Below the pieces are notes generated by a model. That model searched no databases and was not told the DNA's origin. It saw nothing but the letters and a program-made list of their open reading frames with translations. Both the position numbers and the translations under genes were made by a program. Positions 10,191 through 64,000 of a DNA stretch of 64,000 nt are shown one piece after another; the stretch's first letter is position 1, and every line of letters starts with the position of its first letter. The stretch comes from Psammoneis japonica (Eukaryota), in assembly GCA_008632985.1 (NCBI GenBank), contig QPGO01000206.1, positions 1 through 64,000 of the forward strand, in the 5' to 3' direction.

Positions 10191-10475
10191 CGGTGAGAAC
10201 CCGGAGTTTTGCATCGCGCCAATTTCCTGCTCATTCCGGTTCATTCATTTTATAAGTCATCGAATATTTTTAAAAATGCAAAATGCTCTGAGATCGAGCG
10301 CGATATTATTGCGTCCATCTTCAATCTCAGCCACAACGAAGTGATATGCTCATCAAATCAACAGTGGCAACTCAACAAAGTTTGTTTCGCCCTTATATTA
10401 TCATCTCCCGCAGCCATCTCCCATCTCCTCCATCGAGATCTTTTACTTGTCTTTTGATTCTTGTGAAAATCACGT

Positions 10476-31436: not shown

Positions 31437-31560
31437 CGTCAACCATTTAGCTGTCTTTGTGCCGAAGTAGAAATTTTAATCAGGGGATTTCGTCAACCAT
31501 TTAGCTGTCTTTGAGCCGAAGCAGAATTTTTAATTGTGGAATGTCGTCAACCATTTGGCT
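31437..31560. repeat. 54-bp tandem repeat, about 2.3 copies
   Basis: CGTCAACCATTT at 31437, 31491 and 31545. Confidence 0.85.
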
Positions 31561-34470: not shown

Positions 34471-34783
34471 TCTCTCTCTCTCCTCTCTCTCTCTCTCGAA
34501 CAACGAATGATCAAAATTGGCAAAGCCAATTTTCTGTCAAATGTGACAAACAACAGCAACACAAGTGGCCAAGGTGGAGCTGCTCAATCAGACATTCATC
34601 CAACCATTTCAGCAAATGGCAGGCACAACAATGTTGGCTGAAGTCAGGAGAATGAGACTTTTGTGGTGGCTTCATCAGCGGCCGGCTGTTGTTGTCATCG
34701 TGCGGTGGGCATTGTTGCATTAAAAAGATCCAAAGAAGGACAGACAGGTTGATCAAATCGATTCAATTCAAGTCAAGTTGTCA

Positions 34784-34817
<34 letters not shown>
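34471..34817. repeat. Two (CT)n microsatellites (34471-34497 and 34791-34817)
   Basis: Read directly from the sequence. Confidence 0.9.
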
Positions 34818-37516: not shown

Positions 37517-38441
37517 GTTTGTCACATCCTCAGATGGCTGGCCCAGGAATTTCCTCATTCTGGCAGAAGCGTTGTGGTGCAAAAACAGACAACATCACAC
37601 CCTCCAAACATGCTGGGTGCTTTTAAAGTGTGTCCAAGGGATGGGGTGAGCCAGCCAAAGTCAAAAGAAGTCAGCTGCACATGTGTCCTTGGTGGCCCAA
37701 TGGGTGTTCATCACATCCTTGATGGCTTGCCAGGAATTTCCTCATTCTGGCAAAAGCACTGTGGTGCAAAAACAGGCACACTCTCCAAACACACTGAATG
37801 CTTTCAAAGTGTGACCCAGGGATGGGGTGAGGCAGCCAAGGTGGAAAGAAGCCAGCTGCACGTGTCCTTGGTGGCCTGATGGGTGTTTGTCAGATGCTCA
37901 GATGACTTGCCAGGAATTTCTTCCTCATTCTGGTGGAAGCATTGTGGTGCAAAACAGACAAGGTCACACTCCCCAAACACACAGAATGCTTTCAAAATGT
38001 GCCACAGAGATGGGGCAAGACAAACAAAGCAGAAAGAAGCTGACTGCTGTGTGTGTCCTTGGGGTGGCCTGATGGGTGTTCATCACATCTTCAGATGGCT
38101 CACCAGGAAATTCCTCATTCTGGTGGAAGCGTTGTGGTGCAAAAACAGACAAGGTCACACTCTCTGAACACACTGAATGCTTTCAAAGTGTGCTCCAGGG
38201 TGGGGCAAGTCCACCAAGGTAGAAAAAAGCCAGTTGCATGTGTCCTTGGTGGCCCAACTGGTGTGTGTTTGTCAGATCCTCAGATGGCTTGGCCAGGAAC
38301 TTCCTCATTTTGGCAGAAGTGTTGTGGCACAAAAACAGACAAGGTTGCACCCTCCAAACACACTGAATGCTTTCAAAGTGTGCCCCAGGGGTTGGGTGAG
38401 TCAACCAAGGTAGAAAAAAGACAACTGCATGTGTTCTTGGC
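37517..38441. repeat. Satellite-like tandem array: 5 diverged copies of a ~180-193-bp unit
   Basis: The CCAGGAA..TTCCTCATT anchor lies at 37543, 37730, 37910, 38103 and 38293. Copies also share TGTGGTGCAAAA(A)CAG, GAATGCTTTCAAAGTGTG and TGTCCTTGG. Confidence 0.92.

Positions 38442-41231: not shown

Positions 41232-41235
<4 letters not shown>

Positions 41236-41269
<34 letters not shown>
41236..41269. repeat. (AG)n microsatellite
   Basis: Read directly from the sequence. Confidence 0.95.
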
Positions 41270-41271
<2 letters not shown>

Positions 41272-41739
41272 GTGAAAGAGGAAGTGTGACAAAAGCAATT
41301 GGATCAGACATTCACTGATCTGGCACAAACAATCAGTGGGCTGCAACCGCATTAAAAAAAGAAGAGATCATCAAACCTCATGCATGGGTGATTGCACATG
41401 CAAATTGCCGTTGAACAAGAACACCAGTGCTTTTGTGCCAGACCGGAAGATTGCCAACTTGGTGCAACTCCATACGAAAATATCCACCTGTGCCAATGCC
41501 ACCATCGACGTCACCAATTCTCACTTGTCAGAGATTGGTCTTTGCCCCACTCAGTTCTTAGTCAAGACAGTGCGATGGGCCCAATCTCTAGAGTAGAGGG
41601 CCTGCAGAGAGTAGGGCCTCTAGAGCGAGTATTCTCTAGAGCAGAGACCAGAGCTAGAGAGATTGCCCCATACTGTATCATAGCTACTTGCTACAGTATC
41701 TCTAGCTACGAGATGTGGATGGATGAATCAAGATATGTG

Positions 41740-42163
41740 AAGTGCAATCTGAGCTAGAGCTGCTAGCATCGGTCCGATAGAGCAGAGAGAGTACCTCATC
41801 TTCTCTATTACAGGTAGAGACAGAGAGTTTTTGATCTATTGCCTAAAGGTAGCTGCTCTCTATTAGCTTCTTCCATCCGCGCTGCATGGCCCAACGCATG
41901 ACGCATCATGACGAGCAAAACGTGTGCAAAGTGAATTTATCACCAATACCATAACTAATCTCATCAGCCGTAGACAGTCATGAGCTCATCACATCGCTGC
42001 TGAATATCCAAGGAATTACACACTCACCACACACCAGTAATTTTCCGAACGTCCTTGAGCTTTGCGGCTTCCTCCAGGGCTCGATCCCACATGCTAGCCT
42101 CGCAAAACTTTCTTCGACCGAAATCACGTGGTCGATAAAACGCGTAGTGTAAGACACGTCTTG
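41740..42163 (-). pseudogene. Diverged duplicate of the VPS16 last-exon end and 3' flank (source 54242-54681)
   Basis: Colinear with the source; for example AACTAATCTCATCAGCCGTAGACAGTCATGAGCTC and SMWDRALEEAAKLKDVR occur in both copies. Small deletions. Confidence 0.92.
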
Positions 42164-42324
42164 AAAAGCAGCAAAGGGCTTCCCTCACCATTTTTGCTTG
42201 TGAAATGCTATTACAGGTTGGAGGTGACGGCATCTAAATTCTGACAGGAATACAGGTACAAAATACCCTGAAGTGCATAGAGTACCGCTGGCAACCCTAC
42301 CACCCCACTAGAGACAAAGAGAAT

Positions 42325-42790
42325 TACCAATGTCGTTGCTGCTCCAACGCAACTGCTACTTTTTGGTGTGTTGTTAAAATTTCAACATGGCACTTATGGT
42401 AGATTCGACGACTTCTTCCACGAACGTCACCCTTGATTTGTTAATTTTGGGATGCACATTCTTCTGAAAATGTGTGGTTGCGTGCTGTATTGTAGTGCGA
42501 GCGGCAACATGTACACAACCGCCATGGGCGTTATCGTGGCTGACTTGAGAGCCAAAGTACAAAGACGGCAGTCCCCGCACCGACAAGAGCCGTGGGTGCT
42601 ACTGCAAAACACGTAATGATTGTTGGAAAAAATGAGGAGACTTGTAGTATTGCCGGTCTTGCTTGCTTGTGCTGTGAAAGGCCTTGTTCATCGTTGTTGT
42701 TGCCATCATCCAGGCCTGAAAGTGCACACAATTCTCATCCGCCAAGCGCACCAAAGCCAAGATGGCTCTTGCATGTGGAAACATAGTTGT
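42325..42790 (-). pseudogene. Fragment of an unidentified, probably membrane-protein gene; unmutated paralogue of 31625-32110
   Basis: Colinear nucleotide similarity with 31625-32110. Peptides NNDEQ.LSQHKQ and CFA.AP.ALV occur in both copies. Confidence 0.6.
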
Positions 42791-43634: not shown

Positions 43635-46600
43635 TTTAAATTTTTATTTGAAAGATACTCTTTCGTTTTGTCTTTTTTTTGCCAGACGTGAGCCTTCTTC
43701 TTCAACCTTGCTTGCACACCTCGTTCAGTGTGATCATCGAGCGAGAGCGAAGAAGTCAAAAATTCTATTGACGCATGGACAGACCGTGTTGGAGGGAGTT
43801 TCTGAATTTTCGAAATCTTTAGTACGAATGCCTCTGTAGATTGTACGCGCGAGGTGTTTTTCATTGTGTTCGCCGTGCATCGAAACGCGTCTTTGATCGC
43901 TCTCGCAAATCGCAGAAACAGCGTTGCTCTCAGCTACGGCATCGTCTGAGCCCCAAAATAAAATACATCACAACAAACCAACAAGTGCACTGACATGATG
44001 TGCCTGGTCCCTTCTGTGGACTCGACTGACTGCTGTTGCAGTGACAAGCCTCGAGAGTCCACAAATGCGGTCACACCTGGCACATTGTTGACACACGAAA
44101 AAGGGCTCCAGTCCGATGAATTGATCACCCGTTGTTGCACGATTTGCCACATTGTAGACGAATCCAGTGTTGATGTTGAATTCTTTGTCAGTGGCTTCTT
44201 CCCCAACAAGGGACCAAGGATTGCTGCAATTCAAAAAAATTGTGAGGGATCAAAAGATGGAAGCGCTCACGCAATTGGGACCTGGACCTGACTTGTCACC
44301 TTTGGCGCGGGCTGCTTTAAAGGTGTTTTCAGTGCTTCTGAGCTGGGCACAATGAGGAGAAGTGGAGACTCCACAAGAAAGCAGAGGTTCAAATGTGTGC
44401 ACACACCTTTCCAAGGAATGACCATGAGCAACTGCAGCACACTTTGGCCACAGCCGGGCTGCAAAGAATGAACTCCATGCCGCAAAATTATGTTGCAGTG
44501 ATGCCTCATGTGGATCAAGCAGAAATGAGCAACATGCCAGCTTGAGCATTGCATCAAAGAACAGAAGGATTGGCGCTCCCCACCTCTGTTGTTGATTTTT
44601 CCTCTTGGTTGTTGCAGGGCTGACCCAGGAAGAAGAGTCACCAGAATGGGTTGTGGCCACTGTCTGTTTGGCTCACATTGATCCTTCAAATTTGCACCAC
44701 CAGTGTCTTCTGTTTTCAAAGAGGTGTTCAGGTCCTTGGCAAAAAGATGTGGACACAGAGATTGCAGCTGTGGTGCATCAGCTGGAAACTTGTCTGCAAA
44801 ATTTGTCAAAGGATGAGCCACAGACTCAGTGTGCAGTCATGCACCCCACTGTGACAGATTTGGGCTTCACAGTCTCATGGCAGGAGGATGCAATTGCTGG
44901 CTGCCATGCTGTCAAGTGTTGCATCATTGTGCACCCTGGGTGATGCCCGCAACCCACACATTCACAGGTGGCAGTTTCAAATTGATGCTTTTCAAACAAA
45001 CCTCATTTCACGCAGCAAAAATTTTTTGCACCTGTCTTGCAGCAACCCACTTTTGGTGAGGGTTGAAATGGAGGGCAAACCTCAAGCTTCAAAAAATCAC
45101 AATGCAGAAATGCACAGAATCAGTGCCACAAGTTTTCCATCACAGGAAAATCAGCTCTGCTGTGCTGAACTGCCAAGCCCTCACAATCCTCATGCTCTTT
45201 GCAGAGTTCCCCCCCTTGGTGCCATTGCAGCCATGCTTTTTGTGCCATCAACTCAACACATGCGCTCTTGCTCATGTGACCAACCCACCACCCAGCTTTG
45301 TTCAATGCATGATCTGAAGATGTTGTTGCGCATGATTGACGTTCATTGTCAAGGGTGTCTGTAAGAGCATCTAACAATGAGCACTTTTGTGGCAGGCGTG
45401 TTTGTCAGCCAATGTGCACATGCTTCAAACAACCTGCTTCTTGTTCCCATCACATTGTTCTTGACCAATGGTGACAGCGAGGGTTGAGTGTGGTGCATGT
45501 GACTGTGCAGCATGATTGCAAATGTGCTGTGTGTGCAACACACACAGGTTGGCAATGACTGATCACATGATTGCATGAGCTGCTGTGTGCAACATTCTCA
45601 CTCAGCAACCTCACAAATCGCCCACACATCTGCCTTCTCCAAGATGACATCAGCATGGAAACTGCACCCCAAATCCATTGGCAGTGCTCTGTGTTTGCAC
45701 ATGCATGATGCAAAACATGTCAGAATGGCAAGTGCTGTGGTCGTCAATGAGTGTCAAACTCAAGCTGATTCTGGGGGCATCTCACTCATCAAGCATGAGC
45801 ACATTTTGTGCTTGCAGATGTTTGCTGGTCATCCCTGACTCTCAGTTGGATGAAAACAGATGTTGCACATCTTTTGTGGACAAAGCCATTGGCACTGTCT
45901 TTGTCTCTGCATGCAGTGACAGCTCTGACAAAGTGAGCAAATTGTCCCATGGTGGCTGCACATGCTGGAGTGAGGCTGAAAGAAAAGCTGTGACAATGAG
46001 CTGCCGTTTTTCAAGAAGTGAGATCCCTGCAAGCCTCCTTGTGTGCAGAGCTGTGTCTCCAATGCACCATGCACATGGCCTCAACATCATTTTGTGCAAA
46101 GTTGTTTTTTCATGAATGTCGCGCAATCACATGGCAAACTCTTCAATTTTTGAAAACATGGAAAAGCCACATGAGCTGGTTTCTTGCCTGGCACATGGGT
46201 CCACTGTGTTTGATTGGTGCTGTCTCAATGCCAAAGATTTCCTCACAAGCATTGCACCACATTTGCTGCAAACCCACTTTTTCTTGCAGGTTGCTTGAAG
46301 CAGCTCCCCGCCCACCTCTGAAGAGAGCAGCACACTGAAATGAGCTGTTGCAGCAAGAAAATCACACTCTCTAGTCAGAGCTGTCTCCAGCTGCCATGTG
46401 CACTTCATCTCCCATTTCAGCTTGAACAGCAGCACTGCTTTTCTCTCACACAGAGCCTGGCTGCACTTCCAAGAGAAACCTTGCTGGAGGTGGCTGGAGG
46501 AGCGCATCATCACCAAACCATGAAAGAATGGCAAGAACTGCTGAAAACCCTTCTTGCTCTGTTTGGCAATTGCCTCTGACTGGTGTTCACAAATGAGCTC

Positions 46601-47309
46601 AAACAATTTGAGCACCAATTCAGCTGCTGCCTGGAATGCTGACAAAAAAGCCAATCTGGTCACTTGTGCTGGAACCTTGGAGAGGAGTTGCTGTGTGGCA
46701 CCACCCAAATTGCTGCCACAGTGTGGCCACATTTTGCCATCGTTTTTCCTGGGTGACACATTTCACCTGGCAGCATCCATGGTCACCACATTTTGCACAT
46801 CAGGCCACATTTGGAAACGTGTGTGAAATTGCACAATGGCAGTTCCTGTCATGCAGCAACTGTGTGGACCACACCAGATCTTGATCTTGTTGAAGTTGAA
46901 CTTCGGATGCATGATGTCATCATCTGCTTTGTGCCTTGTGAGTGGTGACACAGATCTGGTCAAATCCATGTGATCTCAGGGCATTTTTTGTTGCCCAACA
47001 AATGCCCCAATGCACAAGTTTCCTGATTTGCATTTGCTGCAGAAATCAAGCAGCATGGTGGCAAAACCAATGCAACATCAAACCAACAACATCAGCTGAC
47101 ACAACACACCAAGACACCATGAGTGTGAAGACCAGGAAGATGGTCTGGCAAAAGTCACAGACAAGGTGTCATCAGCAGACAAGCACTTCCGCTGCAACTG
47201 ACATGCTGCCAGATGTCTCCAGTGTGTGGGTGGATGAGTGCCTCTCCAAGGAGGGGTGGATTGGTGGTGTGGCTGGCACAACTCTCATTGAATGCCACAA
47301 AAGTCATTG

Positions 47310-47510
47310 CTGATTTGACAAAGGTGAAGGGCACGCACATGTTGCTGTGCAAGGCCAAGACACATGCCATGTTCTTTGATGGGGTGGCGAACATTCAGAA
47401 GGCCACAAGAATTGTCGAGGTGGAGTTTCCCTGGGTTTCCTGTCCACATGGTGCCAAGCATTGCATGGCACTTTTCTTTGAAGATGTGGCTTGGCTGAAA
47501 CCCGTTGATG
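47310..47510 (+). mobile_element. hAT-superfamily transposase fragment (DUF659-like)
   Basis: MFFDGVANIQKATRIVEVEFPWVSCPHGAKHCMALFFEDVA resembles the DG-A-N-x-K ... H-x-x-x-H-x-x-x-L-F-F-x-D segment of hAT/DUF659 transposases. Confidence 0.65.
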
Positions 47511-50500
47511 CAAGTGAAACAGTCTTTTCTTCATCCACCATGTCTTTCCCAGTTGTTCTTTGCACCACAGATGCTCACACCAAGGTGCAAGAGACAAAGT
47601 TCTGCTGAGCAACAAGGTGACATGCAAGAGTGTGCTTGTTTTGCAAAGCCACACAAAAGAGCACAGCAGCAAAGCAAGGGCAGATTGAAAGCCAACAATT
47701 GTGTGAAAACATGGAAAAGCACCAACATGAGTTAATTTCTTGTCTTGCACATGTGCACCAGCAGCACTGAAAATCTTTGACAGAGCAGCTGCACTGACAC
47801 ATCATTCATTGCAAACCCACCCTGTCAGCACAAGTTGAAACAACTCTCTGCCCACCTCCAAAAACCAGCGGTGCACCATGCAAAGCTGTTGCAGCAAGAA
47901 AGTGTCCTCTCCAGCCAGAGTGCTCCTTCTCAGCTGCCATTCAGGGGCTCCATCCCCTGTTTGCTTGAAAGCAAACCATGCTGCTTTGCATTTTCCATCT
48001 TTAAATGATGGTCTTCCTCTCTCAATCATTGAGTCTGGCTTCTGATCTGAAAGGATCTTGGAGGTGGAGCACTGTCAAACCAAGAAAGAATGACATGACA
48101 AGAATGCCCATCATGCAAAGACCCTTGCTCTGCTTGGCAGTTGCTTCCAACCACCAGCACCAGCTCTGGGGCAGCTTGAAGCAACAAAGAGGAAGGGGCT
48201 GCAGAGAAGCACTGCACACAATGAGAGGTGCTGGTGGAACATCTTGTGTGAGCCAAAGCTCAGCAAAAAATTGCCAAGTGACTGCATTGTTGAGCAGCTG
48301 ATGCACTGTTGCAGAGCAAAACCTGTGTGCCCGAATGAGCTGCAATTGAAACTTTTCTCTTGCATCTTTTTTGAAGCATCCCTTGCAAACATGATTTTGG
48401 GTTGTGTGTTTGGGCTGATTGTTTTGAGTGGCAGCTGCCACAGCACATGATGTGGACCTGGCATTGTTGGAGGCCATTTGTGGCATGAACTTGCTGACTT
48501 GACATGCTTGTGCTGCCAACAATGAAGGTTTCACCACTTTGAAGGATGTCAGAAGTTTGTGAATCTGGTGCTGACATTGCCAAGAGATGGCAAAGTGGTG
48601 CCTGTCAGCTCATGCAAGCAGTGCAAAAGGGAGGGCAAATCTTGGCACTGCCTGGAGCAGCTCTGGTGGGGGCCAGCAGCCACAGCCCATGCCGGTTAAA
48701 ATCAAAAGGGGCATCTTGGAGGCTTTGGCTGGTGGCTTGAATGTTTTGCATCCTTGGTGACTGTGGTGCACATGAAAGTGCATTCCTGCACTTGTTGTTG
48801 CAGAAAGTGGGGGAAATGGAGGCACCATTTGCAGTGTGTTGTGTGAACCCAGGCTGGTGCAATGGTGTTCACAAACAATGGGGAGTGTGGCATGGTGTCA
48901 GTTGCCACTTGCCAGCATGGTGGCATTTGATGGGGGTGCTTGTCAGGAGTGCTGTGTGCTGAAGAAGGGTTTTTGGCTGGTGCTCCAGGTTTTATGCCAC
49001 AGACTCATGGCTGAGAATGAAGCTGGCTGACACAACACAGCACAGCATCTGAAATGTCAAAAGATGTGTCATGCCTCCTGGAGTTTCACAGTCAATTGTT
49101 CTTCAGTGACTTGGAGAATGCTCACAATTTTTCTGTCATGGAAACAGCAGAAAGCTTTGCTGTTCTTTGCTGCAGCAGTTTCTGTCATAGACAGGGAAAG
49201 TCCAACCCAATTTGTTTGGAAGAAGACATGGAACTCCAGGCTGCTCTGTTCTGCAATTCACTGGCACTTGAGCATCAGCCCTGGACTTGGTTGGTGGTGC
49301 TGCAGCACTGCCCCAAATGACTCTGACAGAGTGTCCATCATCATTTGAGGATGATGTCAATGTGCTTGTGACTGAGCTGCCCCAGCGAAGCATTTGCCAA
49401 CAAGGTTCTGAGAGCAAGCTGTGCTGTGTGGGCAGCATGCACACCAAGCTTGTCACAGGATGAGCTCCTTGAATGGGCTGGCCACCATGTCATGTTGCTC
49501 ACAGTGGCTGCTGTGGTGCAAAACAATGTCAGTTGTGTCTCGGAAGCAACAAAGATGTGCAAGAGAAAAACAAGCACAGCCACACAACTGGCAAGTCACA
49601 CCATGGCTTCACTGTAGCCAACCCAAACTGAAGCTGTGAAATGTGAGATGTGTTTGGGTTGGTCTGTCTCAAGAAAACAAAAATGCAAAGGTTTGTGACT
49701 TGTGAATCTTGTTTCTCTGTGTGCTTGGGCAGTGGCAGAGATGGGGCCCTGAGCCTTGGTGCAGAGCTGGTTTTGCAATGACAAAAGGATCATCACTTTC
49801 TCTGGTGTGTTGCAACAAGGGGACAAAATGTTGCCTGGCCAAAATGAAATGGAGTGTCCAGCAACTGAAATGTTTGATGTTGTGTTCAAGCAAATGACGC
49901 AAAACCAGAAATCACACAAGCCAGCAACAATGATGGCTCCATTCCAAATGACAAGGTCCTGACTTAGAGACCATGTCAAAACAAGAGCAGGAACCTTTTG
50001 TGCAGCCCAGCTCTCATGCTGTTCAAGAGCAGAGGTGGCACCTTTGACTGTGGTCAGCAGAGAATCAACACCTCCACCTCTGGCAAGGGCATGAGCCATC
50101 AGTCAATGAAGTTGACAAGGTGCATGCTTCCCATCTGCAGCCTCCCCAAACCCATCTCCTGGGGTTGTGTTGGGAATTGAGAGGATGGTCATGACAGCTG
50201 TGCCCTTGCTCTGGCTCAATTTTGGGGTCTCCATTGATTGTGAGCATGCTGCTTGCATCAAGAGATGTGTGAATGTCTCTGGTTGATGAGCACCACTCCA
50301 CCACAGGCCAGTGTCCAGGACAACTTGGTCAAACCAGTGTCTGCTGGCAAACATGCAGCACTTTCTGAAGCCTTGCCCTCTCTTCCTGAAGTTCCTCTTC
50401 ATTTGTGAGTTGGAGATTTCTTTGGTCTTTGTCAGCATCACAACACACTCCTGCCCATTGTCAAATTCTCATGGCTCAAATTTCATGTTGAAATGGTGCA

Positions 50501-52544
50501 TCAGAATCCAATCCTCTTCAGATTCTTGCCTCCAAAATGAAGCTGGCCTCACACTCACACTTGATGTCATCTTTGGAGCCATGGGTGCATGTGACCTGTG
50601 GCTTGACACTGATGGTGTGAGAGAGCTGGGTCTCCAGCATTGAGTGCTTGGCAAGAAGCTGCTTGAGCCTTTCAGTGCGTGGGTGTGTCATGGTGGCAGT
50701 CCTCTCCCTGCCACACAGCAGCATCCACTCGTTTTTGCTCAACACCAGGCCTGGATTGGTGGGCCACATCACCACATCTGCAACCTTTGGGAGCAACTCT
50801 TGGTCAGCTGGTTCAACAAATTGAACAGCCACATCTTTTTCTTTCATGACTTTCTTGACCAACTCAATGGAACCAGACAGACAGGCAGCTCTGAGAAGAG
50901 CAGCTTTCAATCTTTGCTGTTTTGCAAAACTTTGAGCCCACCTTTGACCAATCAATGCAACTGCAGTTGAGAAGACTGACTTTGAACAACTCAGTTGTTG
51001 CACAATCAACCTCCTTGGAATGAAAAAAAAGCAGCTTTGATTGCCAAATCAATGACTTCCTTTGACTTGAGGCACCGGCAAAGTCTCACAATTTTGATCA
51101 GTTTTCCTTTTTGAAATGGTTTTGGAATGTTTCATCTGGTCTTGAATGAAAAGAGTTAATTTTGGCGACCAGCATTTTGACAAAAGTGTTCTGGCATGAC
51201 ACCCTCACAAGCTTCTGCAACAAATCTGCAGTTGTGAAAAGCAAACCTTGCTTGGCACCAAACAAAATCTCAGCAATGCACAGCTCATGATGGTTTCACA
51301 ATCAATCACATCCATGATGTGCAAACAAACAATGAGGTGCAATCACTCCGCCCACACCATTCCAATGGAAGCCATGGGCCAAGCTTGAATGACATGGAAG
51401 ACTTCCAAGGGGAAGAAAAAAGCAGGCAGCTGACGGGTGCGGAGCTTGAATGCAACATGCAGCTTTCAAGAACATCTCCAATGGCATCTGCTTGTTCAGG
51501 TGGCTGCCATTCCAAACAAACATGGTGCCCCCAACGTGTGTTTGCTTGACGAGTTGACAGAGTTGACTGGTGCCTTGGGACCACACACACCATGCAAAGG
51601 CATTTTGAGACTGTCACATTTGCCAGTTTTGCCGGAGCTTTCTGGATGGTTGCCAATTTACATGCATTCAAATGAATCAAGACTGCTCCAGTGGTGTCAG
51701 GGTGAGTGCTCCCAGCACACTCACTGCACAGGTGCCATGCAACAGATTGCCAGCCAGTCTTCAAATGAGTGGCTCTTCGTCAATGAGTGCTCAGGTGACA
51801 AGAGAAAACATCCAAACAACAGGGAGTGCAATTCTTGGAAGTGCCGTTGCACATCCTGCTGTCACATTGTTCCCAATGTTGTGGAGAGCAGTGGCCACAG
51901 AGAAAATCATCTTTCTTCCATGTTGGGTTGCAAGCATCAGAACCTCCATCCAAAGACCATTTGTGGTGCTCCAAGGAAAAGTCGAACGAATGTTCACTCC
52001 AAACCCGGTCATTCCTTGCACTTTTTGGAACACTTTGCAGCACAGGAACCTTCAGATGGACATTTCACAGACCTGTTTTCTGGCATGACAAGAAAATCCT
52101 CAAACCAAATGCTGCATCCTTGGAAATGACACCCAGTCACATGTGACAAAGCTGATGTGAGTGATGGCCTTGGACTCAACTCTGGTCCTGTGAGGGGCAG
52201 TTAGAGAGTGAGTGTTTTTTTTCATTCTCAACATTTTTCATCCAACGTCTGTTGGCAATTGACTCATGTTGCTGCTTTTGCTCTGTGATTGTGGCATGCA
52301 CCTGAGCAGTCCATTCAACATGAGGCATCTGCCATTGGATCCACAACTGCGAGAGAGATTCCTTCTGATGGGAGAAATGCGTTCGTCTCAGATGAGGATC
52401 ACGTCCAAGGCAACGGCACCCAAGGTGGCCTCTGCATTGCAAGATGCCTTTTTCAACTCTGATGCATTTGCTTCAAATCAACACAGCGAGGTGTGTGCAC
52501 AACAACTGGAGGAGGATCATGCAAGTGTTTCCATCCCAGATGAT

Positions 52545-53175
52545 CCCACTCACGAAACGGCATCAGCCATGGTGCCTGTGGCACAAGAGACTTGTTCCAA
52601 TGAAGAAACTTCTGCACCAAAACAATGCATTGGCTGGCATGGTTGAAGAGTGCATGCAAGCACGAGAGTCCCTCATTGCAGGTGCCAGTGCTGCTGTTGT
52701 TCTTGTCATTGTTCCAAGGCAGTCCACTCAGATGGGAAGTGGTGCACTCAACAATGATGCCATTCAGAAGAGGGCATCAGCCGTGGCACCTTTGGTGCAA
52801 GAGATTCCTTCTGATGATGATGCTTGCACTGGTGTGGTTGAATCGTTGGCGGAAGAATGGGTGGGTGAAGAATGCGTGCAAGCACGAGGATCCTTCATTG
52901 TGGATGCCAGCGTTGCTGTGGCTGCTGTCGTGGTTCCAAGACAGTCCCCTCTGCTGGGTGATGGTTCCTTCAACAACCATGAGACGGCATCAGCCATGGT
53001 GCCGTTGGTGCAAAAGGCTTGGTCAAACAATGGCGCTGCTCTTCCAAATCAATGCAGTGGCTTTGCTGAAGCATTGGCAGCAGAGGAACAGGTGGAAGCA
53101 GAAGGCATCCAAGTGCCTGCATCCCTCATTGCAGATGCTGGTGCTTCTGTCATTCCAAGGCAGTCTGCTCAGCTT
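52545..53175 (+). repeat. About 3 diverged ~220-235-bp coding-type tandem repeats
   Basis: EEC.QAR.S.I...S.....VPRQS at ~52645, ~52867 and ~53101; ETASAMVP occurs twice. A separate 108-bp-period duplication (GGSDVEAFKQ.QECFQ) lies at 53420-53575. Confidence 0.75.
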
Positions 53176-54471
53176 GGGGAAGCTCTTGGCAGTGTGCATC
53201 TTCTTGCCACTGATGGGCAAACTGTTCAAAGGTTGGCCAGAATCTTGAGCTGTCGGGGAAGAGTCATGCGGCAGTTGGAGTGCTTTCGGGAGTTTAGAAA
53301 CAGGAATGCTTTCAAGCTTGGTGGGCAACTCAAGGTGCACCCAAGGAGTTGCAAATGGTTTCCAAAGGCAAGAAACTTCTCAAGCTTTGTGTGTGTCTTA
53401 ACAACTCTGATGCCCCATGGTGGCTCTGATGTTGAAGCTTTCAAGCAAAAACAGGAATGCTTTCAAACTTGGCTGGCAACTCACAACTGCCATGATGCTT
53501 CAATCCACTTGCCCCACATGCACTGTGGGGGCTCTGATGTTGAAGCTTTCAAGCAAAGACAGGAGTGCTTTCAACACATGTTGCAGATTGTTGCAAACAC
53601 CAAAATCAGTGCTCCTGCACCCCTTTTGTTGAAGCTTTCATGCCAAAGGCAAGAAGGTTCTCAAGCTTGGCAGGAAATCCAAACAACTCTGTTGTCCCAA
53701 TCAGACCATTGTCATCATGAAGAGCTGTCTGACGTTTTGTTTGTGAGGAAAGGCGGTGCAATCATCCAAAAAGGTCATTTTTTGTTGAAATCTTGCGATG
53801 CGTCGGCATGAGTTGCTGTCACGAGAAGGCAATTTCCTTTGAAAACAAGGATTTCTTGTCATTTCTCGTGCATCACATCTTTTCTTAATCGAAGTAGAAA
53901 GAACGCCTGCACCTTGAATTGCACCAGAGGATGTTGGCCGCGTCGCAAAGACGATCTTGGAGGGTGACAAGGGTCGTTTCTCGACTCGCCGCGCGATGAT
54001 TGTGCGGGGATTCGGAATTTGTCGCAAATTTTGACATGTCGCAAATTAATTTTTCGATTCGGTAGCTAGCTCTCTACTACCTACTAGCTAGTAGAAGTAG
54101 CTACTACTAGCTAGAGGGCCCTACATGACTCACCTCCGGCCGTTCCGCCATTGCCCCGCGTCTGTCCCTCCCCCCGCGCCACTACCGGTACATAGGTGAC
54201 GTTGCACGTGAACTTCTCACGCGCGCGTACTGCTACATGTCAAGTGCAATTCTGTGCTAGAGCTGCTAGTAGCGGCCCGATAGAGCAGAGAGAGATACCT
54301 CGTCTTCTCTATTACTGGTAGAGACAGAGAGTTTTCGATGCCAATAATGTGACTAAAGTAGCTTCTCTCTATGAGAATCTTCTATCCGCGCTGCATGGTA
54401 CCACGCAGTACGAACATGACGAGCAAAACGTGTATAAAGTGAATTAACCACCAATACCAAAACTAATCTCA

Positions 54472-57400
54472 TCAGCCGTAGACAGTCATGAGCTCGTCAC
54501 ATCGCTGCTGAATATCCGAGGAATTACACACTGACCGCACATGAGTCATTCTCCGAACGTCCTTGAGCTTTGCGGCTTCCTCCAGGGCTCGATCCCACAT
54601 GCTAACCTCGCAAAACAGATCATATCTTTCTTCGACCGAAATCACGCGGTCGATAAAATGCATAATGTAAGACACGTCTTGCTTTCCACGAATGGCAGCA
54701 ACAGCGAACGGCTTGTACCCGATTGGAGGCTTTGTCTTGGAATCAGCAAGAGCTCTGAGGTGGTCCCATTGTCCACTTTGTGCCAAGGCGCGCACCTTGA
54801 TGTGCCACAAAATCTTTTCCGGTACTCGAAACTTCTTTGCCAGCTTGTCAGCATCACTCAAGAGCCGATTCGACTCGCGCTGGTTCACTGAAGCGTGCTT
54901 GATTACAGAAATAATGGTGGACGAAACCGACGAGCTTTCAGGAAGAAAGTCACTGGAGCCATACTTTTTTCGCAGTATCTACATACAACAGCAGCAAGAA
55001 TTAAACGTGAGCATACTGGTCCGTGACTGCTGGAAAACAGCGGCTGCCCTTACCTCTTGATCGTTTCTTAACTCAAGGTAATCGTCGGTGCATGACTTGT
55101 GGAATGCGGTTTCTTTTCCAAGACCAAAGACACGGGAGGCTTCCTGGAAACAAAAGATTGCAGAAATGAAAACAGCTGTGAGGACAGAGTTCTAACGCAA
55201 ATGCCCGCCACCATGCATGATCGTCGAATGCTTACAATTAACATGGCTTGCTTTGCTCTTTTGTCGTCTTTCGATTCCAAAGCTCGTTGCACCACAGCTA
55301 TCCCCGCATCTCCAAACTTTTGTCCCCTCAAGAGCAAAGCCTTGACACTTGCGACATCAGGGAGTGTGGCTAAATACTGCCTCTGCAGATTGAAGGCTTC
55401 GAACGTAAACTTCGAAACGACAGTTCCCAAAAAATTAGTTGGACCGAGATCCATCGATGAAGCCATGCACACTTTTTCGTATTCCATGAGGGCGTAAAAA
55501 ACAAAATCACCATCCCTAAGAGGAGAAGCAAAACATTTGTGCGAGTTGTATGAGCAAACGAGAGTAATTCATTTCCCCCTTTTGAGAAAGAAACGTACCT
55601 TGCTGCCGTCGCAACAGCCACTGCATCAGCGTATGATCCAATCGAAACCAATGCTCGAACCTTGTCGGCAACACTCGACTCTAGCATGAGCAAAAGTTTA
55701 GCTACACCAGGACGACCTGCAGCGTTGGCAGCCAGAGCTACTGCCGCGTACCCACCGCGAGTTTGTAGAGGACTACCGCTTATGTCGACATTTGCATTTT
55801 CATTGATAATTTTGATGGCGTTTTCAGCAGTTTCCGCGTCGCTGTGTGACTTGTCATTGGAAACGAGGGCTATGGCCTTGGAGGAGCGAGCCACCAGTTG
55901 CACTGACTTGGGAAGAGAAAGGTATTTACTAATGCAAGTTGCAAGTGCAGGGCGTTTCATGGCGATTAAGCGAGCCACGACGCCAGTGCGGTAATCGCGT
56001 CGTGCTGAGAAGCCGTAAGAACAAACCCGACAGCTGGATGTCTCAAAGCATTCAAGATTCGTAGTTTCCTCGCCGCTGCAACAAACTTTATGGCCGTGGG
56101 AGACGGCATGGTTCGCCCGTCGCTTGCAGTGGTCGATCCACCCATGATTTTCCGCTGCTCTGCAGTGTCCTTGTAGCTAAAGTGCATCCCATACGAAGCA
56201 GCACGCAAAAGTCGCTTCTGCGTTAAAATGTCAAACTCCAGCGTTGCAGCCTCTGTGCAAGTTTCAATGGCTTCCAACAACATACCCGTCTTTGTAATCG
56301 CCCGGGCGGCTTCATCGGATGATGGCGACCCTGCTGCAAACGCATCCGAAGCGTCAAGCAACATTGCCGACGGTTCGATTGAACCAATCCGCATAAGTGC
56401 CGCAGTGGAAGGTGGGACTCGCTGCAAAAGCTCAACGGACGAATCTGTGACAACTCGACAGCAATCAATCTCTGGCACAATATACAAGTGATCGGCATCT
56501 TCAAAGGGGAATCGAAGCCAGTCACCATAAGGTCCGACCATTAAAACGCCCAAATTCTTCCAATGCAGCACAACACTGTCTTCCCCACACCATTTCATTT
56601 CAGCAGGAGGTGCCGATGATCCTTCGGATGTATCAAAGTCCAATACCTTGGTTTCAAAAGACGTGGAAATGACTGTTAGAATGGATGCCTGTGTAAAGCA
56701 TGCCAAGAACCGTCCGTTTGGAGCAAAGGTCATCGATACAATCGGAGATGAAATGCGTGACCGACAGTCCACGTCAACAATATCCATATTGACACTGTTT
56801 ACAACCACGACGGAATTATCCGACGTTGAAAGAAAGATCTCAGGGTGTCGGGAGTTTGTGTGAAACCGGGGTAGCACGGCCAAGGCGACATAGGAATAGT
56901 AATTCTCACTAAAACAAGCATTATAGCGAAAGAGGGCGACGCGTTCAGTTCAAGAGCAATGACGACAACCGACCGAATGTCCACACGATTTACCTTGCAT
57001 GAGCCGCCGTCGCCAAGGGCGTCACAATAGCATAATGCGGGGGCAAAGTGTCCGTTTGACTGGACGCGGAACCAAACATTTCGTCGCTGACCGCCGCGCC
57101 ACCAGCATTCGAGACTATTTTTCGAGAAGCCAAATTGGCGCTGTCTGCATAGCTGGCATCATCGTGGTCGTCAAAGAGTTCGACAAGCGCACACTGCATT
57201 GACGATGCCAATACGGCGACTCCACCTTCATACACACATGCCTGAAGCAACTCGGTGCCTCCACCCTTTTTCCCGGAAGGAATAATGTAGAATGGTGGCA
57301 GCACCATGGCACCCCGCAAATCGTAAGTTATACAAAGTGAATCACGCATGACCACGACAATGGTCATTCGGTCGGTAAAGCCGAGAGTCAATACATTGGA

Positions 57401-58060: not shown

Positions 58061-58480
58061 AGTGAATAAGGTCAATTAGGTAATAATAAATACAGAGAGA
58101 GCGTCTTTGTGATGTTGGCGAAACGTTCCGCATAAACTGAAGCAGTGACAGCAACGGTGCGTTCTGCGGCGACTTCCAGGCAGAAATGAAATCGCCATCG
58201 CGCAATGCAATCACAAGAGCACCGGTAAAAACGACGTGCTGGTTCGGCCGCCCACCCGTCATCGAGTTCGGGCCGCAGACCGCAGGTTTCGATTTCGAAA
58301 GATTTTCATTCTGGGGGAAGTCTCCAGCTGAGCTCTCTGCAGTCGGCTCCACTGTGGAAACAATGAAAAAAGAAACACGCACGCGGAACCAACTCTCATC
58401 ATCAAACAAAACTGGAGGCCGTATGATGGTCAAGAAGGGACCAATTCCCGCATCGGAACTCGAGTTCGGCACAGCACAAC

Positions 58481-59150
58481 TTGACCCGGAAGAGCTCAGT
58501 GCCATTGCTTGACAACCAAGGAACAATGATCAATGGCTTTTGCACAACCTTGCACTTGAACTCATTGGCAAACAAGCATCATGACAGCGGGGTGCAGTGC
58601 AGTGCGGATGACTTTGTTCGCTCTCTCCATGTTGAGCTAAAAAGGCATGGCCCGGAAGGGGGTTGGGCATCATTCCTGAACAAACTGCAGGAACAAGAAA
58701 AAGTGGAAACAGATGTTGAGAAAGACAAATTTAATCTTCACACAAGTCTTCCACAGACCGCACGAAGCTGGCCATTGGGCTTTGTTGGTTGTTGACCGAG
58801 CCAGACCTGGACAGGATCTGTTTTTGTGTTTGTTGACTCGGTGCCAAATTTCCACAAACGGTCGCTGCTTGACCTGCAGAACATGGTCACCTCTGCACCT
58901 TTCATCAACACCCAGGCCAAGCAGATGAGGGCTCAAATGTCTTGACAAGCAAGGCACACAAATGATTGTGGCACACGGATGTGTTGCACTGCGGCAGCTC
59001 ACACGAGAACTCTGAAGCTCCAAGGGTTTGCAAGCAAAGAATCTGCTGGAGCAAGAAAGGGCATGACAGAAACAGTGAGCAGCATGTCTGTGTGGCATGC
59101 ACCTGACATGTCAACAAAGGATTTGGGTTGTGCGGGGCAGAAGCACATTT
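58481..59150 (+). pseudogene. Ulp1/C48 cysteine protease relic (a domain often carried by DNA transposons)
   Basis: TMINGF; LIFTQVFHRPHEAGHWALLVVD (His 58773); VFVDS (Asp, ~58835); Q..TNDCG (Cys 58967). Frameshifted and hypermutated. Confidence 0.7.
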
Positions 59151-60148
59151 TGGATTGCCTCAAGCATGACAAACTTGCCGTTTCTTTTGATTGACAAGTC
59201 TGCAAACTTGCCATTCTTCAGCTTCAAAGCATCACAAGCCACTGTGGCTTGCTTGCATTGTTCTAATCTGCAAGCATGACTTGCTCTCATGTCTTCAGTT
59301 TCATGGCACCACATGAGATGAGCCCGTCTCCTCCATGCTTGCTCACCTGGCCCGTGCAAAGCGATGGAGATGAGTCCGCTCCAACCTGAAAACAGAATGG
59401 GAAGTTACGGATGATGAGGAAGATGCTGCTGCTCCCAATGAAGAGGCTGAAGGCAATGTGGAATTGCCCAGCGATGTTGAATGAATGCTCAGATCAATGC
59501 AGTCATGTTGGACTCACAGTTGACACCGAGGATCATTGCAGAGTTGCAATCAATCTGAATCAACAACAGCTTGTGGCATGTCAATCAACACCTCAACACC
59601 TGCCGGCAGCTCTCTGACATTTGATCAGAACACAAAGATGTTCTCTTTCACCGTTGTAAAGTCACTGGCCATGTTGTTGTTTGACAAGTTCATTGTTGAT
59701 CCTTCCTCTCTCGCGACAACTTTTCGAAATGCCCTTTCATTCAACTGACAAGCGTGAACAAAGGCCCATCAATGGCGAAATTGCCATCCACGTCACTCTT
59801 GAGTGCCAGTGTGAGGACTGTCTGGCAGATCTTTTCAGCTGTCGATTGTTTCATCTGACCTGTTGAACTCACTCTCATGTCTTAGAAGCTTTTGAGAACA
59901 TCACAAATTGTCCAATGGCAGTGCCTCGCATTGTGATGGCAACTGTCAAGAAGAATCGGCGTGCGACAGAGGTTTTTGGGCCTGCTGTCGTTGTTCACCT
60001 GCAATGGGGACAGCAACAGTTCGATCTTGAAGGTGTGAGGGACTCAACAATGGAGCACCATGGTTTGGGATCAAACAATGCCCACATGCTTTGTGCTTCA
60101 TGCCAATGCTAACTTGTTGCTGCAGATTGGCACCTCCAATGACAGCAC

Positions 60149-62460
60149 TCAACACCCGTTGCTTGCAACAATCTCCCAGAAAAGAGACTGCGCAATGCAC
60201 CTCACAATCCCGCCCCTCAATGGAGTGTTTGAGAATTGTTCATCCCCAGAGCCCTCTTCGGTGCACTCGCAGCAGTCGAACCTCCAAAAAGGGCAAACTG
60301 TCGGTGCGGCTCGAATGAAATCGAACAGCAGACAACTTTCATTCAAACTCGCCAACCGGAGATTTACAATCTCCTCCAGCACCTTAGAGGACGACGAATT
60401 TTTGACATCCTTCAACCACTCCCAATGTCCGACCTTGTTCCTTTCACAGAGACAACCAATTTCGTTGCGCACCTTGGTCATCTCGGCAAGAGCGTAGTTC
60501 GGATGCCCAAGCCAAACTTTGCAGAGGGAGCGATTTCGACCCTCACTCAACAAGGTCTTGATTTCTTCGGCGGTGCCAAACGTGTCGAAAGCACTTCCGA
60601 ACCCAAGAATCAGGGTTTTCAATGTCGAATTGTCCGTCAATGCTTTGACAATCACATGGGCACTCTCTTCCAACATTTTACATTCCAGCTGGAGTTCCTC
60701 AATTGCATCGTTTGCCAAAAGCATCGCCTTGAAGCAATTTGCCGCTTCCAACCCAATCGTGTCACCCGGGGTGTCCTGAACAATTTGCAAAGTCTTGAGA
60801 GTCCTGTTGTGATGTTCAAGAGCTGTCGCAATGAGCTCAAGATCAACACTGCAAGAGTCTTCCATGTAGAGATTCAGACGCAGCTCAGTGAGAACCGCGT
60901 TGTCCGCAAGTCCCTCGGCAATTGCACGACAAAGTTCAATGGTCCACTCACTGTTGACAAAGAGAGCAAGTTTCTTGATGGACCTGCTGGCCAGCAGAAT
61001 TGATCTCAAGTGAGTTGCGCCCACAGGCCCAACTTGTTGGTCACAATCGATCTCCAATGTCTCCACAGTTTGATTGTCTCGAAAGGCCGTAGCGATCTGT
61101 TGACCTTGATTCCATTGAAGAACTTTATCTTGCCCTCTTCATTGTTGCCCTCGACAGCAACATCAGCGTGCACGTCCCCAACTTGTTGGTCACAATCGAT
61201 CTCCAATGTCTCCACAGTTTGATTGTCTTGAAAGGCCGTCGCAAATGCCTCAAACCCTTCCATTTGGAAGGGATCAAATCCAAGCACGAGGTGCCACAAT
61301 GAAGTGTTGTGTCAAAGACCTCGTCCCACCGGATGCAAGAATCGATCGTGAAGACTAACTTCATCATGTAAAAGCTCGAGCCTTTCGAGCGTTCCATTCT
61401 CAGCAATGGCATCACCCAATGCATCTGCTGCATTTGGGCCACAAGCAGCGTACGAAATCATCAAGTTCTTCAGCGATCTGTTGACCTTGATTCCATTGAA
61501 GAACTTTATCTTGCCCTCTTCATTGTTGCCCTCGACAGCAACATCAGCGTGCACGTCCCCAACTTGTTGGTCACAATCGATCTCCAATGTCTCCACAGTT
61601 TGATTGTCTTGAAAGGCCGTCGCAAATGCCTCAAACCCTTCCATTTGGAAGGGATCAAATCCAAGCACGAGGTGCCGCAATGAAGTGTTGTGTCGAAGAC
61701 CTCGTCCCACCTGATGCAAGAATCGATCATGAAGACTGACTTCATCATGTAAAAGCTCGAGCCTTTCGAGCGTTCCATTCTCAGCAATGGCATCACCCAA
61801 TGCATCTGCTGCATTTGGGCCACAAGCAGCGTACGAAATTGTCAAGGTTCTTCAGCGATCTGTTGACCTTGATTCCATTGAAGAACTTTGTCTTGCCCTC
61901 TTCATTGTTGCCCTCGACAGCAACATCAGCATGCACGTGCAGTTCCTGCAACCTGCGACAGCTGCCCATTCCATCCCCGAGACCATGCCACCCTTCCTGC
62001 ACATGAGCCCACACCAACCATTGGTCAGTTCCCAGTGCTCGATCCAACACAGAAGCGCCGCCAGGGCTCAAAGCGGAAAAACATTTCAAACGGGGCACTT
62101 TGCAATGCTCCAGAAGTGTGGACAGAGCCACCACGGCCACGTCGTCAAGCCGTGCATTATCGCCACTGTGTTCGCGCAGGTCGATCGTGACAATTGTTTT
62201 GGGGGTCGCATCGCTGTGGACAATGTCCACCATGTCGCAGAGCACTTTCGTGGTTTCCTGGATTTGGTCCTGAGGGTTGTCTCCGAGGGCAATCCAAATG
62301 GTGCCGAAACAACGCGCGTTTCTGAAGGCATCAAGAAACACTTCTTTGCCATCTGGACGACGCAACACCAAATCCCATTTGCTCGCGTCATCCTCTGTTT
62401 GATGAATCTCAAAAGAGGGAGGATCGGGCCCGAAAAAGTGTCTCACCAAATGAGTCATGT
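60149..62460 (-). pseudogene. RNI-like leucine-rich-repeat protein gene (NLRC3-like, diatom-type), disrupted
   Basis: Repeated L..N..L..L.L units (GLADNAVLTELRL, LEHHNRTLKTLQI, LTDNSTLKTLIL, IAENGTLERLEL, LRHNTSLRHLVL) and a C-terminal LLFDFIRAAP. TGA at 61312-61314, frameshift near 61846, and an internally deleted repeat copy. Confidence 0.8.
61028..61938. repeat. Young 381-bp tandem duplication: two full copies (61177-61557, 61558-61938) plus one internally deleted copy (61028-61176)
   Basis: The ORFs at 61125-61442 and 61506-61823 are near-identical. The two full copies differ by about 9 substitutions and 1 indel. Confidence 0.95.
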
Positions 62461-62819
62461 TTGCAAAGTGACGGAACTGAAGCAGTAACAACTGGGGGAA
62501 CGACGACGGTCTAAAGTGAACGACTAACTTCAAACTGTATGTCGATAGCTTCGAAGGTACAGCACAGGGCGCCGCCGTAATGTTACCGGTGCTACCGGGA
62601 CTACCGGTAGGTGCAGCGCGCTGTGCTGCTGTCCGCTAGCTGAAGATTTTTGATGAACGCTGGACAGACACGTCTTCTTTTGCAGCAGGCCAGCGCGCTG
62701 GCTGGAGACTTCCCAGTCTTCTTCCGTACCACTTACAGACCTCCCAGAAGGGAGTGGAGATCTCGAGACGCTTTACTTCCCCAATTCCATACCGGTACAT
62801 CCAACAAACTTTCACCACC

Positions 62820-64000
62820 ATGACGCCGAGACTTGTGTATTCGTCGACGTTGCAACGATTGGCACGTAGTATCCATGTTTCTCGCTCTCGTAGCGTGAAT
62901 GTGAGAGCACTGAGTGCAGTTAGTCCGAGTTTCAGTTTCACGGGCCAAGAAACGAACTCCGTGCTTGAGGATGCAACCTACCGCTACTATGCGAAGCAGT
63001 GTTTCTCGACCGCAAAGGACGACAAGAACGAGCAGACGGAAGCAAAACCCGATAAGGAGGTAGCCCCCAACACCAACACGACATCCATGGAGTTCCAGGC
63101 AGAAACTCGACAGCTCTTGGATATTGTGACTCATTCTCTCTACACGGAGAAGGAAGTTTTTCTACGTGAATTGGTGAGCAACGCGAGCGATGCTCTGGAG
63201 AAACTCCGACACCTCCAATCAGGAGACCAAAGCACCATTGAGGCAGACTTGCCACTGGAGATTCATATTGAAACCGATGAAGTGAACGGAACTGTCACCA
63301 TTCGTGATACAGGAATTGGATTGACTCGCGACGAAATGATGACGAATCTGGGAACAATTGCAAAGTCAGGTTCAAAACAGTTTGTGCAGGATATGGCGCA
63401 ACAAGATACCGACATGCTGGGTGGAGGCATTATTGGAAAATTTGGTGTGGGCTTTTATTCTGCATTTATGGTCGGAGATTCAGTTGAAGTACGTTCCAAA
63501 TCGGCTCTTGCAGAGAACAATGACGAAACAACCGTGCCGCAAGTGTGGACGTCCACGGGCCACGGAAAATACGATGTTTCAGACTTGTCACCTGATATCC
63601 GCCAAGACCGCGGATCTTCTGTTGTGATTCATCTCAAGGATGATCAGCTTCAATACAGTGACGAGAAAACAATCGAGAACATCTTGAAGAAGTACTCAAA
63701 CTTTGTCGGCTTTCCAATATTCCTTAATGGGAAACGCGTCAACACCATGGAGGCAATCTGGACGAAAATGCCATCCGAAGTCAAGGATGAAACATACACA
63801 GACTTTTACAAATTTGTCGCTCACGCCTATGATGAGCCGCTGGACAGGCTGCATTTCCGTGCAGACGCTCCTTTGGAAATTCAAGCACTGCTCTTTATCC
63901 CATCGTTTCATTCGGAAAAGTATGGAATGAACCGTATGGAACCGGGGGTTTCGTTGTACAGTCGCAAAGTGCTGATTGAATCCAAAAGTCCGGATATTTT
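62820..64000 (+). CDS. TRAP1: Mitochondrial Hsp90 (TRAP1/Hsp75), 3' part runs beyond the window
   Basis: Arg/Ser-rich presequence MTPRLVYSSTLQRLARS; MEFQAETRQLLDIVTHSLYTEKEVFLRELVSNASDALEKLR; DTGIG; NLGTIAKSGS; IIGKFGVGFYSAFMV; KKYSNFVGFPI. Open to the window end, which is why it is absent from the ORF track. Confidence 0.95.
   Translation, partial: MTPRLVYSSTLQRLARSIHVSRSRSVNVRALSAVSPSFSFTGQETNSVLEDATYRYYAKQCFSTAKDDKNEQTEAKPDKEVAPNTNTTSMEFQAETRQLLDIVTHSLYTEKEVFLRELVSNASDALEKLRHLQSGDQSTIEADLPLEIHIETDEVNGTVTIRDTGIGLTRDEMMTNLGTIAKSGSKQFVQDMAQQDTDMLGGGIIGKFGVGFYSAFMVGDSVEVRSKSALAENNDETTVPQVWTSTGHGKYDVSDLSPDIRQDRGSSVVIHLKDDQLQYSDEKTIENILKKYSNFVGFPIFLNGKRVNTMEAIWTKMPSEVKDETYTDFYKFVAHAYDEPLDRLHFRADAPLEIQALLFIPSFHSEKYGMNRMEPGVSLYSRKVLIESKSPDI

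Follow-up and report, generated by a model that had tools for sequence, protein, structure and literature searches.

Do young duplicates in a decaying stretch of DNA show that the decay is still going on? The question is raised by a 381-bp tandem array inside a broken leucine-rich repeat (LRR) gene of the diatom Psammoneis japonica. The array occupies positions 61028-61938 of the window analysed here, which is the first 64,000 nucleotides of contig QPGO01000206.1 (assembly GCA_008632985.1, forward strand), and it lies in a domain that has lost nearly all of its TA dinucleotides. A preliminary description, made from the letters of the window, had read the differences between the copies as recent or ongoing hits of a process turning TA and CG into TG or CA. 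We find that this stands for one of the two targets: CpG decay continued on the copies after the duplication, whereas continued loss of TA is compatible with the copies but not demonstrated by them. On balance, an RNI-type LRR gene that was already dead probably underwent a genuine in-frame tandem duplication fairly recently.

A tandem duplication in a broken LRR gene

Tandem Repeats Finder reports a period of 381 bp at 61091-61938 (2.2 copies, 97% matches, score 1626). With offset plots and alignment, the array as a whole resolves into two full 381-bp copies, a partial third one of 85 bp and a 63-bp fragment of greater age. The unit equals 127 codons and is read on the minus strand, which is the sense strand of the gene. 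Each unit can be divided into segments B, A and C, and the layout is as follows.

60149-62458, minus strand: broken RNI-type LRR gene, with its ATG at 62458-62456 and its last open reading frame (ORF) piece ending at 60149
61793-62635, 61312-61851, 61006-61311 and 60149-61138, minus strand: the pieces of the gene in the ORF list
61028-61090, minus strand: A', an older 63-bp copy of segment A, in frame with the downstream ORF
61091-61471, minus strand: unit copy 1 (B1 61091-61176, A1 61177-61240, C1 61241-61471)
61472-61853, minus strand: unit copy 2 (B2 61472-61557, A2 61558-61621, C2 61622-61853)
61854-61938, minus strand: B3, a partial third copy of 85 bp, in frame with the unique N-terminal region of the gene to which it is joined
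61312-61314, minus strand: premature TGA in copy 1 (CGA in copy 2), a read-supported CpG transition on the sense strand
61840-61847, unstranded: a TG-for-CA pair and an extra G within 8 bp, a frameshift in the assembly that leaves no trace in the read contigs

The extra G makes copy 2 382 bp long in the assembly. It also puts the gene out of frame after B3 (at about 61846/7); the other out-of-frame place is the junction between B1 and A', where the offset is 149 bp.

The translated unit has many relatives in a representative protein library searched with phmmer (2454 proteins at E<=1e-3 and 226 at E<=1e-10), and among the 150 listed each matches as 2-31 repeated stretches. Pfam finds LRR_6 in all six relatives that were scanned (63-261 bits). 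The broken gene itself has an unusual composition: tyrosine makes up only 4 of its 729 residues (0.55%), less than in the 150 LRR relatives (2.11%) or in nine of the window's housekeeping ORFs (2.87%), while cysteine, tryptophan and histidine are raised. This is the outcome that would be expected if TAY codons had turned into TGY or CAY, and CGN codons into TGN. We regard the gene as dead because of the out-of-frame junction, the TGA in copy 1, the assembly frameshift and the near-loss of tyrosine codons.

The array resembles known changes of LRR copy number by unequal exchange, as its unit is in frame, comprises whole LRR modules and is repeated head to tail; it differs from them in sitting in a pseudogene and in having the out-of-frame B1/A' junction. 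Unequal exchange between LRR modules is the likely cause of the 381-bp duplication.

Reads separate real differences from probable consensus errors

We compared the copies in the phase used in the preliminary description (61177-61556 with 61558-61938, 380 aligned positions). The assembly has nine substitution positions and one extra G near 61846/61847, and realignment confirmed each coordinate and dinucleotide class that had been given. When re-phased (61091-61471 with 61472-61853), the copies differ by seven substitutions and the indel. All of A is identical between the full copies, as are B1 and B2, and B3 differs from both of the latter at 2 of 85 positions. One difference of the same kind had been missed: at 61080, A' has C (CG) where both full copies have T (TG), and this is all that separates A' from A1 and A2.

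Read support was assessed with contigs of the sole public DNA run that holds the stretch (0.90 of sampled words). The results concern eight of the 30 contigs placed on it, none of which spans the whole array, and the depths are contig means, which are not copy numbers. The variable part of copy 1 is matched by a contig at 61266-61387 with 0 differences (mean word depth 60.6), and that of copy 2 by a contig at 61647-61768 (mean depth 58.4) with one difference, a G for A at 61729. Flanking contigs range in depth from 63.7 to 75.4; those over 60100-61010 match exactly (depth 70-75), and that at 61901-62700 has 0 differences (63.7) and includes the A at 61931 (CG to CA). Contigs common to both units are far deeper, at 149 (61199-61295) and 128.4 (61358-61501), with 0 differences to copy 1. 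In our reading, the contig ends at 61199, 61295, 61358, 61501 and 61901 are the branch points expected of a two-copy graph. Since either variant arm has the depth of a single copy, where haplotypes would give half, and the common parts have about double, the copies are true paralogues. The collapsed or expanded haplotypes that the preliminary description had raised as a possible refutation are thus at odds with the depths of 60.6 and 58.4 per arm.

Five of the nine substitutions are supported by reads: three CG/CA differences, one TA/TG difference and the single transversion. The last (61331/61712) is indeed the only one, as first described, and in addition lies inside a CpG (CCGG against CCTG). 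The CG/CA difference at 61314/61695 does create a stop, the TGA of copy 1 being present in the 61266-61387 contig. The four CG/CA differences were classed correctly from the assembly, but one is contradicted by the reads: at 61729 the assembly has A (CA), whereas the read contig has G (CG) at full depth. This position is the one explicit disagreement between assembly and reads in 2.6 kb, and is itself a CG/CA site in the repeat. Similarly, only one of the two TA/TG differences (61357/61738) is read-supported, while the other (61508/61890) is not. Read errors, which had been named as the other possible refutation, can therefore account for part of the list (61729, and the three substitutions and the indel that find no support) but not for the five supported substitutions.

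The pair at 61459-60/61840-41 had been taken for an ancestral CG or TA that was resolved in opposite directions, CA in one copy and TG in the other. This probably has to be given up, as the TG form is absent from the read contigs. Neither the TG at 61840-41, nor the extra G, nor the G at 61890 is supported by the contigs listed, and the contig at 61358-61501, with about twice the flanking depth, crosses the C/B junction unbranched in the form with CA and no extra G. If both copies read CA, which the process leaves alone, then a change of CA to TG together with an inserted G within 8 bp cannot be one of its steps. No contig among those listed covers about 61769-61900, a hole that proves nothing by itself, and the ends of two contigs, 61647-61768 and 61901-62700, fully explain the bin depths at 61753-61839 (10.7) and 61840-61926 (19.0). 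A second read set (X2) gave just 33-46-bp pieces of 90-95% likeness, and a third (X3) gave nothing. Long reads have characteristic error habits, and the TG at 61840-41, the extra G and 61890 fall in a stretch of the sort where such errors are usual in a repeat. Most likely these three, as well as 61729, are errors that remained in the consensus of a repeat beyond the reach of polishing.

CpG decay continued after the duplication

Positions within a pyrimidine-purine (YpR) step make up 47.4% of the unit, and all eight transitions in the assembly fall there (p=0.0025; p=0.011 for the six single ones). CpG accounts for 10% of positions, and the occurrence of at least four of eight transitions at CpG is improbable by chance (p=0.005), as is that of at least three of the four that are read-supported (p=0.0037). 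In contrast, a TA can be made or broken by a transition at about 20% of positions, and TA/TG differences are as frequent as chance would have them, both among all transitions (2/8, p=0.50) and among the read-supported ones (1/4, p=0.60). The excess at YpR steps is thus owed to CpG. The earlier count of eight of nine changes at the two target dinucleotides holds up as a CpG excess, but its TA component does not rise above chance.

CpG decay, then, continued on the copies, with 3-4 of about 37 CpG sites lost since the duplication. The unit has only four TA sites, and the one or two TA/TG differences agree equally well with continued TA loss, with background transitions or with sense-strand C-to-T changes at CpA, by which TA would be created. 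For a TA-destroying process that is still running, the copies give weak support.

A duplicate in normal DNA of the window served as a control. Its two parts (18512-19462 and 20156-21081) differ by 113 transversions, 52 transitions outside YR steps and 41 within them, so that transitions are about as numerous as transversions and show no YpR excess. The control is drawn from an internal duplication of about 1.6 kb on the minus strand (18060-19464 and 19659-21083, 74-81% identity), and 18060-21083 lies in or adjoins a 1283-amino-acid ORF with a C-terminal DnaJ domain.

To polarise the changes, an outgroup was sought. A search among longer proteins returned no longer homologue of a 329-amino-acid ORF, and none of the 208 pattern matches in metagenome contigs was confirmed as a close relative. 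The relatives of the LRR protein in the representative library are 23-36% identical, too distant to polarise nucleotide changes.

Four domains depleted in TA and CG

Dinucleotide tables at 250-bp and 1-kb resolution show the window to be a mosaic of normal DNA and four blocks, measured here as dinucleotide relative abundance (rho).

about 6250-10250, unstranded: block I, CG rho 0.34
about 29500-41250, unstranded: block II, CG rho 0.11
about 44000-53750, unstranded: block III, CG rho 0.14
58250-62500, unstranded: block IV, TA rho 0.08, CG 0.64, CA/TG 1.54; holds the LRR gene

Across the four blocks, which are 4-12 kb in size, TA rho is 0.03-0.08, CG rho 0.11-0.64 and CA/TG rho 1.54-1.88, compared with 0.58, 1.01 and 1.16, respectively, in the normal DNA of the window, both coding and non-coding. 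GC content is similar (0.480-0.512 in the blocks, 0.484 in normal DNA) and the sum of YpR steps is unchanged. Only transitions within YpR steps are involved. The borders of the blocks are sharp at 250-bp resolution. Block IV spans the gap between the 5' end of Vps16 and the TRAP1 promoter, and ends about 40 bp upstream of the start codon of the LRR gene. Non-coding normal DNA is TA-rich (e.g. 41500-42000 and 62500-62820), which makes this an effect of the domain rather than genome-wide neutral drift.

The direction of the process is given by a pair of paralogues of about 480 bp, one in block II (31626-32105) and the other in normal DNA (42322-42775). At the 17 CG of the outside copy, the block copy has CA eight times, TG eight times and CG once; at its 13 TA, the block copy has CA nine times, TG four times and TA not at all. 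In total, 29 changes lead towards CA or TG in the block copy, and four lead the other way.

A 190-bp tandem array in block II (37515-38442, about five copies) tells when the changes occurred. Its copies share 79% of their bases, but 91-95% in purine/pyrimidine code, and transitions outnumber transversions (242 against 67). Of the 28 conserved YpR columns, twelve are variable: nine alternate purely between CA and TG, and one holds CG, CA and TG. Because of this alternation, we conclude that ancestral CG or TA was resolved independently in each copy after amplification. On the assumption of an ancestor with normal composition, resolution in place of both TA and CG accounts for the count of variable columns better (p=0.39) than resolution of CG alone (p=0.025). 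A regional process turning TA and CG into TG or CA is therefore real elsewhere in the window.

A basecalling artefact of modified DNA is ruled out as the cause of the TA loss in block IV for 60100-61010 and 61901-62700, where the contigs match with 0 differences. Self-BLAST of the window in purine/pyrimidine code rules out that the blocks are copies of one another; as shuffled controls yield many short hits in this code, only long hits were counted. We also looked for strand-coherent clusters of conversion, comparing TG with CA per 300 bp. These counts show no over-dispersion in blocks I and II (chi-square 13.8 with 11 degrees of freedom and 37.2 with 37, respectively) and just a mild one in blocks III and IV, with no sign of single-strand bursts.

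Weighing the explanations

In the explanation that we favour, the LRR gene would lie in one of several sharply bounded domains where TpA and CpG are turned into TpG and CpA by transitions. After the duplication, the copies would have acquired the changes that we consider reliable, namely three CpG transitions, one CpG transversion and one TA/TG difference, as the regional decay continued to affect them through its CpG arm. The simplest reading of this arm would be deamination of methylated cytosine in a silenced domain. As to the TpA arm, the young copies neither demonstrate nor exclude its activity.

Several observations weigh against this explanation. Pfam finds 0 LRR families at E<=0.01 in the window's own ORFs (60152-61138, 61315-61851 and 61796-62635). 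The DNA run may come from the same sample as the assembly and is thus not independent of it, and one unbranched contig at doubled depth, an indirect kind of evidence, is what speaks against 61840-41, the extra G and 61890. That the CpG arm is a decay of methylated CpG is something that we infer from its pattern. The four supported differences between the full copies all fall within 61 of 381 bp (p=0.014 over all positions), and the rho values of block IV imply a decay of TA about 4.3 times as fast as that of CG. Each of the last two points leads to another explanation.

The first is that both arms, TA to TG/CA and CG to TG/CA, still act on the copies, at rates close to the historical ones. Every difference involves a CG or TA step. 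The 4.3-fold ratio predicts that 31-39% of the TAs present at the duplication have since been lost, and one or two TA/TG differences among about nine TA sites fit this; two hits in about nine would be at least the rate at CG (3-4 of 37), in line with the 4.3-fold ratio. TA rho in the block is 0.08, and four TA exist in the unit. The variable columns of the 190-bp array likewise favour joint decay over that of CG alone. On the other hand, a single TA/TG difference (61357/61738) is read-supported, the site supposedly resolved twice is absent from the read contigs, and without a known direction the two TA/TG differences are at chance level. Moreover, TA in block IV is close to that in the mature blocks (0.08 against 0.03-0.06), and near equilibrium gains of TA about equal losses. 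Taken together, we consider continued action of both arms unlikely.

The second starts from the clustering. LRR arrays are prone to gene conversion and unequal exchange, and the units could be old ones that have been homogenised except for a patch of about 60-100 bp, or one copy could have received a short conversion tract from a third, more diverged LRR paralogue. The clustering persists when only the 23 CG/TA sites of the unit are considered (p=0.017), and the remainder of the unit is identical, including all of A and B1 against B2. Such a pattern does not fit recent hits that are evenly spread, and may reflect a patch that was left unconverted or was converted, a tract acquired from another paralogue or mutations that came in a local burst. 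Such a burst would, however, produce the same clustering, and all four differences in the patch lie in CG or TA steps, so that either way the preference for these targets remains. That the differences are old in this sense seems improbable to us.

The third is plain deamination of cytosine on the non-transcribed strand, the sense strand of the gene. On the plus strand, each of the six single transitions exchanges one purine for the other, which on the sense strand is C/T, and one type of mutation, C to T at CpG (four) and CpA (two), would explain everything; TA would then be created rather than destroyed. The direction is known from the coding sense for CGA to TGA (the stop), and probably for CGG to TGG. 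However, a six-to-none split between the strands has a two-sided p no lower than about 0.03, the difference at 61080 is on the other strand, and the read-supported sites split four to one. Nor are changes seen at the many C that are not followed by G or A. A sense-strand origin of this kind is quite unlikely.

Finally, that the array is an artefact (two haplotypes collapsed or expanded, or an assembly error, with read errors for the differences) is suggested by the contradicted site at 61729, the three substitutions and the indel without contig support and the two frame breaks in the assembly, but is very improbable given two error-free 122-bp contigs for the variant arms at depths of 58-61 (flanks 64-75), common parts at about double that depth and contig ends at the branch points of a two-copy graph.

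Comparison with known systems

Loss of methylated CpG by decay is familiar from the contrast between bulk DNA and CpG islands in vertebrates, and from the mosaic methylation of invertebrate genomes. The blocks share with it the change of CG to TG or CA, the sharp-bordered domains, active neighbours that keep CG near 1.0 and decay that continues after duplication. In contrast to these cases, the four blocks have also lost TpA (rho 0.03-0.08), and to a greater extent than CpG, which decay of methylated CpG does not predict. As deamination of 5-methylcytosine at CpG cannot remove TpA, a second chemistry aimed at TpA would be needed. Candidates from general chemistry would be deamination of adenine, or oxidation of thymine with T-to-C miscoding, though these are guesses.

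Repeat-induced point mutation (RIP) in Neurospora and its relatives turns CpA into TpA, raising TA and lowering GC. The likeness lies in a hypermutation of non-essential or duplicated DNA that is restricted to transitions, is specific for dinucleotides, has sharp borders and kills genes. The outcome is the opposite: TA is destroyed here (0.03-0.08) and CA/TG raised (1.54-1.88), GC is stable (0.480-0.512 against 0.484), and only the copy inside the block is mutated in the paralogue pair (29 changes against 4), where RIP would be expected to hit both. The fall of TA, the stable GC and the mutation of one copy rule out RIP as the cause of the whole pattern.

Two further systems produce changes of the right kind. 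In E. coli, CTAG is lost through very-short-patch repair of T:G mismatches, a net change of TA to CA or TG that comes from biased handling of these mismatches and is tied to cytosine methylation. Unlike the situation in this diatom, it is bacterial, confined to one tetranucleotide, genome-wide rather than in blocks, and far weaker. ADAR-type A-to-G hypermutation of double-stranded RNA copies prefers a 5' U, and acting at UA on either strand it would yield TA to TG or CA. It would require an RNA stage and is not known to reach about 95% of sites; nor does it spare A in other contexts or act on CG. The 190-bp array, moreover, was resolved in place after amplification. A literature search over the full text of articles returned no description of TA and CG being lost together in diatom DNA.

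Diatoms do have relevant machinery. Work on Phaeodactylum tricornutum describes DNMT5a as needed for methylation and for repression of transposable elements, and groups RID, the methyltransferase-like factor of RIP, with diatom DNMT4, to which it assigns no function (PMC9998398). An earlier paper makes note of methylation in CpG context in a retroelement (PMC2806351).

A larger interpretation would be that a previously undescribed and still active regime, restricted to domains, converts TpA and CpG to TpG and CpA almost to completion in silenced DNA, that its targets are dead genes, repeat arrays and possibly relics of retroelements, and that the young LRR copies catch it in the act. We consider this joint reading conceivable but doubtful. 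If true, it would be a counterpart of RIP, linked to genome defence or heterochromatin, with the opposite dinucleotide outcome, and a system that is RIP-like but chemically different would bear on how transposons and duplicates are silenced and eroded in diatoms. Young duplicates act as a natural clock, and TA loss in them, if shown, would turn an odd composition into a testable active mechanism. As it stands, CpG decay after duplication in a silenced diatom gene is expected biology; the block setting is not ordinary. The blocks are the most striking result and deserve their own study.

Other features of the window

The window is nuclear DNA and holds housekeeping genes identified by Pfam, including TRAP1/HSP90, Vps16, pyruvate kinase, TruB and a DNA polymerase B subunit, among others. 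The closest named relatives of the TRAP1 fragment are from diatoms (53-71% identity).

A Pfam scan of 97 ORFs of at least 110 amino acids from the four blocks returned only one faint match to RVT_2 and two hits at chance level. The RVT_2 match (copia-type reverse transcriptase; 7170-7769, plus strand, block I) is below the cutoff (E=0.0079, 16 bits), and a follow-up protein search found nothing; block I may be a relic of a retroelement. Long overlapping ORFs occur on both strands of the blocks, e.g. 35397-36311, 52396-53811 and 60233-61003 (plus strand), without Pfam hits. Because TAA and TAG are nearly absent, the blocks contain many long ORFs that are meaningless, and these are a trap for gene callers in annotation.

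A dispersed repeat (41735-42163 and 54237-54681, 91% identity) has normal TA and CG, with as many transversions as transitions. Its right-hand copy overlaps the 3' end of Vps16, of which the left-hand copy looks like a partial duplicate, and both are found just to the right of a block edge. Microsatellites are present at 34784-34817, (TC)17, and at 41236-41269, (AG)17, the latter at the right edge of block II.

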